A DNA stretch of 64,000 bases from Escherichia phage ECML-10: the sequence record OL631479.1; one strand, written 5' to 3'. Shown piece by piece: positions 30,385 through 33,974 of this stretch. A program made the position numbers and the translations under genes. Below the pieces are notes generated by a model that did not search any database, was not told the DNA's origin, and worked only from the letters and a program-made list of their open reading frames with translations. The stretch's first letter is position 1, and the number at the start of each line of letters is the position of its first letter.

Positions 30385-30390
30385 AAAAAG

Positions 30391-30488
30391 GTGCTAGGTG
30401 ATGGAATCGAACCACCTATGTATTCAACGACTACCTCGTCTATTTTCAGGATTAAAAATCCTCGCCCTTGCCAAAGGGCTTACCTAGC
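30391..30488 (-). tRNA. Atypical tRNA-like gene (~98 nt), isotype unresolved
   Basis: Perfect 7-bp acceptor and 4-bp D-stem, T-loop TTCGATT; anticodon arm has only 4 bp with loop UUUUUAA (UUU) and a ~30-nt variable region. Confidence 0.4.
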
Positions 30489-31180: not shown

Positions 31181-31516
31181 TTAGCTATTGCTAACAGGCT
31201 GTATTTCTGTAGTAAATGGCATAAAAGGTGCTGGTTTTTCAGCCTCTTCCACTACCATCTCTTCCTCTTCACCAAACATCTCATCATATTCTTCCTGCAT
31301 TCGGTCTGCCTTATCAAGAACATACTCTGCAATGCTTTGACGAATATTTTGTTTGGTTTTCGGGTCCAACATCATCTCTCTTAAAACTTTGTGAGCTTCT
31401 GGAACCATCGCTATAAAAGATTCCTTCATATCAAGGATGTTCTTCTCTAGCTGAATGGCGTTGGACTCCTCTTTCAGAGGTCTGCCTCTACGGCGACGCT
31501 TTTTAGTTGTATCCGC
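31181..31516 (-). CDS. Hypothetical protein with basic AT-hook-like N-terminus
   Basis: Start chosen at MADTTKKRRRRGRPLK; acidic C-terminus. Confidence 0.3.
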   Translation of the reverse strand, partial: ADTTKKRRRRGRPLKEESNAIQLEKNILDMKESFIAMVPEAHKVLREMMLDPKTKQNIRQSIAEYVLDKADRMQEEYDEMFGEEEEMVVEEAEKPAPFMPFTTEIQPVSNS

Positions 31517-31865
31517 CATGTTTCCTCCATTATCACGTGATAGGTGGATTTTATCATAGCAAATACTGATTGTCAAGTTCGCCGCAGGGTGGTATTCCCT
31601 GCGACTTGTCCAGCGTCCTGGACCAGCAAGACCCAACAAGTGGGTTACCAGAGGCCTATTACCCGCGCTTCGGCTCGACCTTGTTACAGGTTGGCTGGGG
31701 TCACATCGTCATGTGCTGGCTGCCCCTACCATTTTAAGTGTGGTGCACTATCAAGCCCTCTAAGGGGAACTCAGTCTTCTCCGAACCCTGTTTCAAAGCA
31801 TCCGGAGATAAAGCCATCAAATTCATCTTTAAATTGGATATTCATCATGATACACGAAAACAACC

Positions 31866-32108
31866 TCATTGTAAAGCACAAATAAATAAAACATACTTAA
31901 TTTGTTTGTTATCAGGCTCAGGGTAGAAGTAGAAGATCTTGCTATCACCGATCTGAACACCACCATCCCAACAGCATAGCCCATAACCTGTATTCATACA
32001 AGCTAAGTCGTTGGCAAAATCTATTGCATCATCCAGTGCACGAAATTCACCTTCATCTTCTAAATAATCCTCATTCATGGAACGAAAAACGAGCTTAACC
32101 TTAAACAT
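31866..32108 (-). CDS. Hypothetical protein
   Basis: 80 aa ORF, co-oriented. Confidence 0.25.
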   Translation of the reverse strand: MFKVKLVFRSMNEDYLEDEGEFRALDDAIDFANDLACMNTGYGLCCWDGGVQIGDSKIFYFYPEPDNKQIKYVLFICALQ

Positions 32109-32184
32109 AGCATTACCTGTAGACCTCGTAAGTTAAAATTGTAGCACATCATATTGCAGATCTTATCAGGTAACATTATTTTTG

Positions 32185-32394
32185 TCAACAGATTCCGGCC
32201 TTATCTCGCCTGTCTGCGTATTCTTTAATCGCAACCTCATCTGCATTAGTGACCAGGTCTTCAAAGTAACTCTCAAGCTCCTCGTCAATGTCAGGAGACC
32301 AGCTCTTTTTCCTGTCAGTGTGAATTGCAGACTTGTTGAACTTATTACAGTTCTTTGCTACCGGATTATTCATTAAGCGCTCCTCAGCGTTCAT
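32185..32394 (-). CDS. Hypothetical protein
   Basis: 69 aa ORF overlapping upstream gene end. Confidence 0.25.
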   Translation of the reverse strand: MNAEERLMNNPVAKNCNKFNKSAIHTDRKKSWSPDIDEELESYFEDLVTNADEVAIKEYADRRDKAGIC

Positions 32395-32962
32395 AGTAAA
32401 TTTTATTTAACATTACCTCATCCTTTGCAGAAAGAATACCGAGATATGCATCACCGAATCTACCTGCAACAACCTCTGCGTGATACATCACTTCGTTAAT
32501 ATCGTCAAGAGTGATAACTGGATGACCGTATCTCTCTGAGTATTGTCTCAGAGTGCGATGTAGGGAGTCATCATCATAGGCAGACTTTTTAATATCACAA
32601 ACACGACGAATAGCCTTGATGTCGAAAAACCCTGTACGATACCAACCAAGAAAAAGGTTTCGTGCAGTGTCAACATCTACATCAATACCATCAAGAACCT
32701 TATCTACAAGATAGCTGTCATCCTTTGGACCTGCTTCCTTAGTGCGAATGTAGTTGCCATCTTTTCCAGGTGACAGCTCCTTCTCATCACCAACCTGAAT
32801 GCCATCATTTGGCGGTGTTAACCACTTATCCGGATGCTTACGATCACGAGCGTTAGAATGATTACGCTGGAAACCTGGCTTCCACTTGAAAGTTTTCTCC
32901 ATCTGTTCTTCATTCTGATAACGTTTTGCAATCTTTTCACGGTCATCTTTGCGTGAGCTCAT
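32384..32962 (-). CDS. Hypothetical protein
   Basis: 192 aa ORF downstream of the non-coding repeat region. Confidence 0.3.
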   Translation of the reverse strand: MSSRKDDREKIAKRYQNEEQMEKTFKWKPGFQRNHSNARDRKHPDKWLTPPNDGIQVGDEKELSPGKDGNYIRTKEAGPKDDSYLVDKVLDGIDVDVDTARNLFLGWYRTGFFDIKAIRRVCDIKKSAYDDDSLHRTLRQYSERYGHPVITLDDINEVMYHAEVVAGRFGDAYLGILSAKDEVMLNKIYYER

Positions 32963-33465
32963 AGCTGCCTCCTCTTCAAGTTATAGAAAAACTCACTGTA
33001 TCGCTTTGTAACGAGCTTTTCTATCAAACTGGTGCGATTGCATTACTTGGTATGGTTTATACAGCTGTGGAGCGATTTAGGGGCCTCATTATCCGTTTCC
33101 ACACATAAACTTTATCCAAACTCGCGCGGGAGTCTCTCAACCGACTCCTTACGGCGCTGGCAAGCTTTCGTCGGTGGCCCACATTAGTGCTCGGCCTTTG
33201 GCCTGCGCTATCGCTTCGCTCCCACACATGTTAACAGACCTGCATGTATGCACTTCTGTTATTGTGTGCACTATGGAGGCCCGGCATCTCGCCCCCTCGT
33301 AGGCGAGTGCCAATGAAGGGCCGACACTACCTATAGAAAGTAATAAATTTAAAACATGGTACTTAGGATCTAGTATATTCTACATAAGTTAAGTATATGT
33401 ACTTAGTACCATAAGTACTAGATCTTTTATTTTTTATTATTTAGTTATTTTAGTTATATTCTTTA

Positions 33466-33549
33466 TGTGTCCGTATCACGGACAGTTAGTGTCCGTATTA
33501 CGGGCAGATGTGTCCGCGTGACGGACAGTAGTGTCCGTATCACGGACAG
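33466..33549. repeat. Four tandem 21-bp palindromic repeats (consensus TGTCCGT-NNN-ACGGACA), candidate iterons/operators
   Basis: Units at ~33466, 33487, 33508, 33529, each an internal inverted repeat; preceded by AT-rich tract 33421-33465. Confidence 0.7.
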
Positions 33550-33623
33550 TTACTAGCCTCTGTTCCAGGGCGAACATAAAACATACGAATCCTTATAGTA
33601 CAGATATTTAAGTTTTTACTGGT

Positions 33624-33974
33624 CTAACCAGTTGTTGACATCCGAATAACTTCTTCTGGTGGCAAAACTTTGGAAAATGTGCATCTTTTACCTCTCCCTT
33701 GTGTGGATATTTCAACCACTCCCGCACATTCTAAAGTTTTAACGCACGCTGCTGCTTTTGTTTTCTTTATCCCAACATCTGCTGCAATTTTCCTTGTGCT
33801 GGGTGTGAAGCGTGAATTTCCTCCAAGCTTATACCAGTTGTGCAGGTAGCAGTATACAATCTTGTCATACAAGTCAAGAACAACAACCTCTCCAGTTGTG
33901 TCATTCAAAACTTTTGACATAGACAGTATTTCAAGGGGGACTTTAAGATATAGCAGCTTATCCCCATCTTTCAT
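33624..33974 (-). CDS. Hypothetical protein, possible DNA-binding
   Basis: 116 aa ORF ending ~75 bp upstream of the palindromic repeat array; basic segment RKIAADVGIKKTKAAACVKTLE. Confidence 0.3.
   Translation of the reverse strand: MKDGDKLLYLKVPLEILSMSKVLNDTTGEVVVLDLYDKIVYCYLHNWYKLGGNSRFTPSTRKIAADVGIKKTKAAACVKTLECAGVVEISTQGRGKRCTFSKVLPPEEVIRMSTTG

Follow-up and report, generated by a model that had tools for sequence, protein, structure and literature searches.

The genome of Escherichia phage ECML-10 (sequence record OL631479.1) raises the question of what purpose is served by a GC-rich segment without evident gene, located at positions 32963-33340 of the 64,000 nucleotides analysed here, a stretch called the window in the following. 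As far as sequences can tell, the segment is a real, conserved, base-paired and non-coding element, which is probably new and whose function is putative. Our preferred reading, held tentatively and with less than even confidence, is that it may represent a cis-acting, base-paired single-strand recognition or priming module close to a replication origin, which would be read by the phage machinery and copied by satellites.

The initial annotation placed the segment correctly between minus-strand genes and a repeat array: the start codon of a 192-aa minus-strand open reading frame (ORF) ends at 32962, and the array begins at 33467. Its GC-rich character, originally put at about 340 bp, applies to 33100-33335 (55.5% GC compared to 43.4% in the window) but not to the left part at 32963-33060 (approximately 41% GC); the GC-rich stretch is rather about 270 bp long, and 33064-33336 is one of only five places in the 64 kb in which a 150-nt span exceeds 56% GC. 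Both hairpins that had been quoted are present, GGGAGTC at 33128-33134 with GACTCC at 33143-33148 and CTCGCC at 33288-33293 with GGCGAG at 33302-33307.

The window belongs to a Vequintavirus (rV5-like) phage. The region around the segment (1 kb) matches 119 phage records with 90-99% identity, all of them Vequintavirus, among which 18 are unverified entries labelled 'Campylobacter phage'. The element was found in all 118 Vequintavirus genomes, in one copy each and at the same place. Most phage annotations show nothing in this gap, and some put small hypothetical ORFs there. The original statement that the segment holds no ORF is too strict, since ORFs of 30-56 aa exist, but none of them is conserved. 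The most prominent case is ORF 78 of rV5, which is annotated in RefSeq (33057-33227, minus strand). This frame is not kept open, as it carries an internal stop in the divergent rV5-like phage L011 and a frameshift in variant L071; it has no counterpart in the plasmid copies described below, and its variable sites are distributed as 17/20/17 over the three codon positions, i.e. without bias towards the third one. Hence, ORF 78 was rejected as a protein-coding gene and, because the remaining short ORFs are disrupted in most variants as well, the whole segment is judged to be non-coding.

Evidence for a folded element comes from the pattern of substitutions, for which a comparison with relatives had been proposed at the outset: stems are either invariant or altered on both sides, and loops vary. 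At the centre is a 75-nt core with the stem P_b (coordinates of all features in Table 1), in which three of the six pairs are altered on both sides between the phages (ACCGAC/GTCGGT) and the plasmids (GCTGCC/GGCAGC). Over 15 distinct core sequences, 97.8% of the P_b cells are paired, compared to 25-52% in slid controls, except for a slide by +3, which gives 81%; the 24-nt loop closed by this stem is invariant in the same set save for one A/C position. A second possible stem, GGAGTC/GACTCC (33129-34/33143-48), competes with P_b and overlaps it by 3 nt. Hairpin M5 shows two double changes in plasmid NZ_CP020521, GGCA/TGCC to GTCA/TGAC and CTCGCC/GGCGAG to CTCTCC/GGAGAG, and its variation among phages is confined to the apical and internal loops. 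In the long hairpin (33233/33260), AACAG(N)/(N)CTGTT has A-T as its fifth pair in the window, C-G in L011 and T-A in L090, another divergent rV5-like phage, and this pair is mismatched in several variants; the top of this hairpin is dispensable, as an 18-nt deletion removes it in rV5, A147 and Pr121LW. Two further covarying pairs were found among phages in the small hairpin of block A (33051-54/33058-61). With so few independent lineages, shuffle statistics overstate the significance; even so, stems that are kept or co-vary while loops are variable represent the pattern that is predicted for a folded single strand, and the compensatory changes in P_b (three) and M5 (two), together with one long-hairpin pair existing in three Watson-Crick forms, are the reason why we assume single-strand folding. 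According to our own tally on the aligned sequences, made without a tool count, the stems are nearly all Watson-Crick, with about 2 G-T/G-U pairs in approximately 110 bp.

The conserved helices do not add up to a common architecture. No common overall structure could be derived for block A or elsewhere outside of these helices, and global consensus folds do not match between phages and plasmids beyond P_b. Two further candidates, a GGGAG/CTCCC helix closing the core and a long-range helix of CCAC at 33099-33102 with GTGG at 33174-33177, were rejected, as both are contradicted by L090. The 19-mer of the core is unique within the window even if three mismatches are allowed. With covariance model R1, built on the core, all phages and the core-bearing plasmids (so far L005, L006, L037 and L042) reach 88-106 bits, with a single copy in each.

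Folded as RNA, the element is more stable than its dinucleotide shuffles (z = -3.87 on the minus and -3.23 on the plus strand; none of 100 shuffles was equally stable), and folded as DNA it reaches z = -3.85 and -3.28. That both strands beat their shuffles about equally, whether as RNA or as DNA, is expected if the pairing matters more than RNA chemistry. The strand itself is difficult to assign. In the divergent phages L010, L011 and L090, the outer P_b pair is A.C on the plus strand, which equals G.U or G.T on the minus strand, and this wobble is the intermediate between A-T of the main clade and G-C of the plasmids. UUCG and GAAA loops also appear when the minus strand is read, which is the default transcribed strand here in the phage. 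The fold energies do not consistently favour either strand, and no sigma-70-like promoter or intrinsic terminator brackets the borders of the phage element. Generally, the strand evidence conflicts, and RNA and single-stranded DNA are indistinguishable from the sequence alone.

Copies of the element outside of phages were found by blastn against complete E. coli genomes, in which the matches fall into unannotated DNA of small circular plasmids. These plasmids measure 13.2-14.3 kb and occur in 7 of the 5426 complete E. coli genomes, always as plasmid and in one instance as a trimer of 39.6 kb. Their structural genes code for a major capsid protein, a Dit-like baseplate protein (54% identity with a protein encoded in the window), a neck protein (48% identity with gp56 of rV5) and a tape-measure protein that is a distant relative of its rV5 counterpart; the identities of these proteins with rV5 proteins range from 25 to 54%. 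Furthermore, they carry an O-like winged-helix initiator (weak match to an 'O-like' PHROG, 6e-4), a few small ORFs and approximately 2.9 kb of non-coding DNA, and no terminase, portal or polymerase is found among their annotations. The plasmid capsid family comprises 18 tight clusters, and the contigs are mostly 13-14 kb long. From this gene content we infer that the plasmids are putative satellites of rV5-like phages; in the literature, we found no description of them and nothing relevant on rV5 satellites, transcriptomes or the mapping of pac sites. The record NZ_CP043822.1 (39,610 bp) includes three copies of the 13-kb element; it may be a head-to-tail trimer, which a packaging or rolling-circle intermediate would be expected to form, or else an assembly product.

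The homology between phages and plasmids covers most of the element, namely the hairpin with the TAACG motif, the ATTTAGGGG block and the core, and in one plasmid also M5. The loop of hairpin HP1 contains TAACGAG (33009-33015), which the plasmid copies share as TAACGCG, whereas the plasmids have a different stem (CTCTAAAATC / GATTTAGAG) in the corresponding position around TAACG. At the nucleotide level, nothing but the core matches strongly when the plasmids are compared with the 64-kb window, despite the 48-54% identical baseplate and neck homologues. In the plasmids, the element takes the form of a variable array, in which small hairpin cassettes unrelated to each other are joined by CCCACACA-like linkers (CACACA type), and the cassettes are present or absent in differing combinations among otherwise near-identical plasmids (L037 4800-5010; L009 1600-1800; L004 7080-7310). 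The last cassette, M6, consists of GCCTAAAGAG...CTCTTTAGGC followed by a T-tract and resembles an intrinsic terminator on the plus strand; together with a promoter-like TTGTCA-16-AATTAT on the same strand (9/12 match), it brackets a unit of 600 nt that is free of ORFs. Moreover, three complete plasmids do not carry the rV5-type core (L091 2470-2600, L092 12120-12240, L094 12700-12810). It is replaced there by an alternative core with a 9-bp stem and similar flanks (GGTCCGGAT, an 18-nt loop, ATCCGGAC), while block A, cassettes and iterons are retained; this alternative core was found in none of the phages of the collections.

Two side observations concern the surroundings of this array. Back-to-back promoter-like sites (minus TTGACA-17-TAAGAT, plus TTGTCA-16-AATTAT) are located at L004 6660-6830 and at the same place in the other plasmids, and they are overlapped by four or five ATTGTCAA repeats. 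This arrangement resembles a divergent promoter under operator control, with the initiator operon on one side and the hairpin array on the other. In addition, all plasmids have a conserved segment with C-runs and G-runs, CCCCATTCCCCCTGGGGGGGTTAGGGGGG, which separates the hairpin array from the iterons (L004 7770-7820; L037 5025-5090); it could form a hairpin or a G-quadruplex.

The context that the initial annotation overlooked is informative, since its repeat array is best read as a putative iteron-type origin with an adjoining initiator gene. Four direct repeats are found there at helical-turn spacing (22, 21 and 21 bp) beside an AT-rich tract, the 200 nt adjoining the iterons having a GC content of 30.5%, and in the phages the order is fixed as hairpin element, 130-bp AT-rich tract, four iterons and winged-helix gene. 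The four iterons are 77-100% identical to each other, and their only annotation is a repeat_region in phage nom. The neighbouring gene on the right-hand side is annotated as 'putative transcriptional regulator' or 'replication initiation protein' in phage records; its 116-aa product matches phrog_12838 'replication initiation protein' at 2.5e-80 and other initiator PHROGs more weakly, and it matches Pfam HTH_36 (2.3e-5) and DUF6945 (4.7e-6), both just under the cut-offs. In L011 and L090, the hairpin element is kept, and the 116-aa protein and the iterons are replaced together by a putative 143-aa initiator and ATCTGATGCAAATATGTATC-type iterons. Because the exchange boundary lies directly after hairpin M5 (L011 1950-2350; L090 1800-2620, reverse strand), the origin cassettes seem to be swapped as units and the element belongs with the constant part of the genome.

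The plasmids provide a similar picture. Their iterons, five repeats of 23 bp, differ between plasmids, and the core type is independent of the iteron type, as L009 and L092 share the same iterons and have different cores. The initiator (Rep) gene is located on the opposite side of the element behind its own promoter in the plasmids and beyond the iterons in the phage. Nevertheless, core, AT-rich tract and iterons follow in the same order and orientation with at least three unrelated iteron sets (window type, L011/L090 type and plasmid types). Position and orientation relative to an iteron origin are the sole feature common to all copies; neighbouring genes and promoters differ. Hence, the element seems to be retained while the origin cassettes paired with it are swapped, and its own core appears to be exchangeable as well.

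Table 1. Features of the element and its surroundings (positions in the window), with the plasmid loci compared.
Feature	Position	Strand	Description
Hairpin HP1	32983-33024		ATAGAAAAACTC / GAGCTTTTCTAT; inverted repeat I8, 12 nt, 92% complementary
Block A	33025-33121		moderately conserved leader with ATTTAGGGG (33075-33083), small hairpin 33050-33062 and first CCACACA (33099-33105); alignable between phages and plasmids
Core	33122-33196 (75 nt)		stem P_b, 33140-33145 ACCGAC with 33170-33175 GTCGGT, 6 bp, closing the 24-nt loop TCCTTACGGCGCTGGCAAGCTTTC (33146-33169)
Long hairpin	33223-33268		base CACACA/TGTGTG, middle AACAGA/TCTGTT, top TGCAT/ATGCA; inverted repeat I2
Hairpin M5	33278-33322		GGCCC-GGCA-T-CTCGCC, loop, GGCGAG-TGCC-AATGAA-GGGCC
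AT-rich tract	33340-33466 (~130 bp)		~30% GC; interleaved inverted repeats including I13; candidate DNA-unwinding region of the origin
Four iterons	33467-33552		GTGTCCGTATCACGGACAGTTA; 22-bp repeats spaced 22, 21, 21 bp, each holding a 17-bp palindrome; direct-repeat family D1
Putative origin-binding initiator, 116-aa winged-helix protein	33624-33974	minus	3' end of the gene faces the iterons
192-aa ORF	32384-32962	minus	next ORF after the element when the minus strand is read; no strict link with the element
Plasmid loci			L006 (NZ_CP020521.1), L005, L007, L008, L009, L037, L042, L091, L092, L094

It is this constant position and orientation with respect to the iteron origin, while neighbours and promoters vary, that makes us favour a single-strand signal close to the origin. 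According to this proposal, the winged-helix initiator would bind the four iterons and open the AT-rich tract, and leftward synthesis or transcription would expose the GC-rich neighbour in single-stranded form, either as displaced minus-strand DNA or as a minus-strand transcript. The minus strand, which shows the wobble in the core, is the strand that leftward synthesis from the origin would displace. The exposed strand could then fold and offer its invariant loop as a loading or priming signal to a constant phage-encoded factor, for which a T7 gp4-like primase-helicase would be the obvious candidate; a gp4-type primase-helicase is encoded by rV5 (PMC3606486). Initiator and iterons would confer replicon specificity and the hairpin core would confer access to the shared replisome, such that the approximately 13.5-kb plasmids, having their own initiator and iterons and the core of the phage, could be amplified by an infecting rV5-like phage.

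There are known systems with a comparable layout. Hairpin single-strand initiation (ssi) sites are located beside the initiation region in the origins of ColE1, pAMbeta1 and RSF1010. They are active only on single-stranded DNA; RSF1010 has a primase of its own that recognises them, and its iterons are bound by a separate initiator. These ssi or primosome sites (ColE1 pas, pAMbeta1 ssiA, RSF1010 ssiA/ssiB) are sequence-specific hairpins that, like the hairpins described here, lie no more than a few hundred bases from the initiator and the AT-rich part, and the order of iterons, AT-rich tract and hairpins is found in origins bearing ssi sites as it is here. The likeness concerns the layout. The known sites have 40-100 nt, and the element is modular, approximately 350 nt long and present as a variable cassette array in the plasmids. 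The lambda origin, in which the iterons are bound by O and a palindrome is located at their flank, also resembles the locus with four iterons of about 20 bp made of inverted repeats, followed by an AT-rich tract and dyad-symmetric DNA. However, it lies inside the O gene and has no GC-rich hairpin module of 350 nt, and the 116-aa protein corresponds to a DNA-binding domain only.

Several points weigh against the origin-proximal module. An rV5-like origin was never mapped, and the GC-skew analysis in the rV5 genome paper was uninformative. The assignment of the initiator is based on PHROG naming and on sub-threshold Pfam matches. The covariation comes from approximately four independent lineages, i.e. 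the main phage clade, L010, L011/L090 and the plasmids, and G.U pairs occur solely on the plus strand in the hairpins at 33050-33062 and 33176-33196. With about 350 nt and several hairpins, the element is much bigger than the known ssi sites, and the variable cassette array of the plasmids is without precedent in origins. Moreover, the plasmid array is bracketed by the plus-strand promoter-like site and the terminator-like M6 hairpin, which suggests a discrete plus-strand RNA. Finally, the core is dispensable for plasmid maintenance, because three complete plasmids carry another hairpin instead.

This leads to the most serious alternative, that the element acts as a structured non-coding RNA, which we regard as possible but rather doubtful. 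It could be a minus-strand leader or intercistronic control of downstream expression, working by processive antitermination or by a switch in which P_b and the GGAGTC/GACTCC stem overlapping it form alternative hairpins, or a plus-strand RNA antisense to the early operon. The partner of its invariant loop would be either a phage protein or a complementary RNA, and the plasmids would have copied the element to couple their expression to helper infection. According to the rV5 genome paper, the genome is circularly permuted, sigma-70-type promoters occur throughout and a long leftward transcription unit covers this region. Consistent with transcription, the sigma-70 promoter P76 is located upstream of the Rep gene and no canonical terminator lies ahead of the element, such that the minus strand would be transcribed by default and the element would head a long leftward unit running into tRNAs, terminase and structural genes. 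Two mutually exclusive core stems sharing GTC, the minus-strand G.U intermediates in the core, C(UUCG)G and GAAA loops on the same strand, folding z-scores of -3.2 to -3.9 and the bracketed 600-nt unit of the plasmids all fit an RNA. Nevertheless, the phage element is without a promoter/terminator pair, the plus-strand promoter of the plasmids is merely a 9/12 match, and the promoter of their minus-strand operon lies downstream of the element, which is therefore outside that mRNA. The strand signals conflict and G.U pairs are rare. Furthermore, a regulatory leader does not need a fixed position relative to iterons, and a homologue of the downstream 192-aa protein (50% identical) is found in another phage without the element upstream.

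The search for known RNA families gave no support either. The scan with covariance models that had been suggested initially matched no family in the gap: in Rfam 15, the whole window yields six tRNAs only at the gathering threshold, and at E values up to 10 the best hit over 31300-33700 is rli43 with 26 bits, compared to a gathering score of 100, mostly over the AT-rich tract and the iterons. The plasmid array has no Rfam match as well. Thus, of the interpretation originally offered, the structured element stands, being conserved and base-paired, and the ribozyme or intron remnant finds no support among the models of Rfam 15.

Known RNAs allow similar comparisons. The ColE1 primer RNA II with RNA I, R1 CopA/CopT and the Inc RNA of IncI/IncB plasmids (with a pseudoknot) also are multi-hairpin structures beside an origin or rep gene with conserved loops for specific contacts, and the promoter-like site and terminator-like hairpin of the plasmid copies point toward the origin as in such origin-linked plasmid RNAs. 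Unlike RNAI, CopA and others, the element has no Rfam match, its phage copy shows no evident promoter, and no complementary target was identified. HK022 put and lambda nut, which are short RNA elements with two stems and act close to where long phage operons begin, are resembled by the core with its two adjacent or overlapping stems of approximately 70 nt; in contrast, the plasmid element is located upstream of the operon promoter, and there is no match by sequence or model.

A related proposal focuses on the core only. The 75-nt core could be a swappable helper-recognition cassette, i.e. a folded RNA or single-stranded DNA that is read by an rV5-encoded factor, the approximately 13.5-kb plasmids then being satellites that depend on virulent phages of the rV5 type and the alternative cores fitting other helpers. 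We consider this conceivable, yet on balance unlikely.

Another alternative, which appears improbable to us, is a pac region that is recognised by the small terminase of the phage and was copied by the terminase-less plasmids for helper packaging. Satellites classically share cis-acting packaging sites with their helpers, as P4 does with the cos site of P2. In P4/P2 cos and in cos-type phage-inducible chromosomal islands (PICIs), a non-coding site is likewise the best-conserved DNA between a phage and the small elements depending on it; those sites are double-stranded DNA, while here the stems covary and the tie between helper and satellite is inferred. Headful packaging with circular permutation in rV5-like phages requires a pac site, the plasmids encode a capsid protein without annotated terminase or portal, the large terminase gene is located approximately 4 kb from the element on the same strand, and the repeated CCACACA could serve as a multi-site protein array. 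On the other hand, compensatory stem changes point to single-strand folding, which is not selected in a double-stranded pac site, such sites are usually found in or beside the small terminase gene, three plasmids are without the core, and CCACACA is not enriched in the window. The papers on rV5-like phages report circularly permuted, headful genomes and place no terminus or pac site here. A selfish or decaying insertion without present cis function (a mobile GC-rich hairpin cassette, an intron remnant or the small gene annotated in RefSeq as rV5 ORF 78) is very improbable, since the core is invariant in 118 phages and several plasmids amid drifting surroundings, stems covary while loops vary, one copy per genome has a constant location, ORF 78 lacks codon-position bias and is broken in L011 and L071, and no intron or ribozyme model matches, even if the element is more variable than the flanking genes (mostly 90-95% identity), is partly deleted in rV5 itself and exists in plasmids whose cassettes shuffle at CACACA junctions.

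Searches for a wider distribution of the element provided little. The two flanking proteins of 192 aa and 116 aa are both restricted to Vequintavirus and are therefore useless as anchors for distant relatives, and the 192-aa protein has no Pfam or PDB match. Exact scans with the core 19-mer resulted in chance matches only in GTDB genomes (in GC-rich bacteria), in 26 of 32 matches by chance in metagenomes and in one rV5-like contig in IMG/VR. The core covariance model had no match in 17 IMG/VR loci that were selected by means of the RNA ligase gene nearby, and pattern scans of IMG/VR for the alternative core and for block A found nothing as well. Hence, the family appears to be limited to Vequintavirus and these plasmids, which leaves little further comparative power. 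Several motifs were also discarded as signals. As a genome-wide signal, CCCACACA was dropped given its lack of enrichment. Among the candidates noticed by eye were T7-type primase sites and a sigma-54 promoter, as well as a DnaA box, Chi, a stretch resembling signal recognition particle RNA (CCGGAAGGAGGCAGC) and a Shine-Dalgarno sequence with leader peptide; none of these is conserved from the phage element to its plasmid counterparts.

A marginal likeness exists to phage T5. Inverted repeat B of 'Repeat Region 1' in its left terminal repeat has 30 of 34 bases in common with block A of the plasmids (CAGAAGGCCATTTAGGGGGCTTATTTTCGATTTA vs. T5 CAGAAAGCGTTTTAGGCGGCTTATTTTCGATTTA; L095 1501-1534, i.e. 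T5 AY587007.1 5284-5317, vs. L091 2425-2458; E 0.03 against the phage collection). Both regions are large, conserved, untranslated and repeat-rich and are found in virulent coliphages; however, the order of motifs differs and T5 has no match to the core. A 15-nt piece of the element in rV5, CGCTTTGTAACGAGC, also matches T5 next to the partner repeat B', and this match reaches a few bases into the end of B'.

Some further observations were made in the neighbourhood. In the AT-rich tract, the inverted repeat of 33356-66 with 33402-12 is interleaved with that of 33369-77 with 33416-24. As a T-run comes after each of them on one strand, the tract might be a weak bidirectional terminator, too. A second GC-rich stretch at 31555-31767 (up to 61% GC) is flanked by minus-strand genes and precedes a strong sigma-70-like promoter (31576-31548). 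Its ORFs are weak, its folding does not stand out (z = -0.74, minus strand), and Rfam gives no match to it. Within the tRNA cluster, ARAGORN called a 99-nt tRNA with a four-base anticodon (atcc) at 30390-30488 on the minus strand, which scores 35.5 bits in Rfam and is annotated as 'tRNA-OTHER' in phage nom.

Phages of the rV5 type are widely used as candidates for therapy and biocontrol, while neither their origin nor their packaging site nor any regulatory RNAs have been mapped. The 75-nt core represents a concrete target to learn how replication begins in these phages or how their long leftward operon is controlled. The array of CACACA-linked hairpin cassettes with an exchangeable core is an unusual architecture, which would make helper specificity testable by cassette swaps. 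If the core indeed acted as a helper-recognition cassette, this would be the first satellite system of Vequintavirus and the first coupling of helper and satellite via a covarying nucleic-acid structure in a cassette array. The putative satellite family could interfere with therapeutic phages or be mobilised by them.

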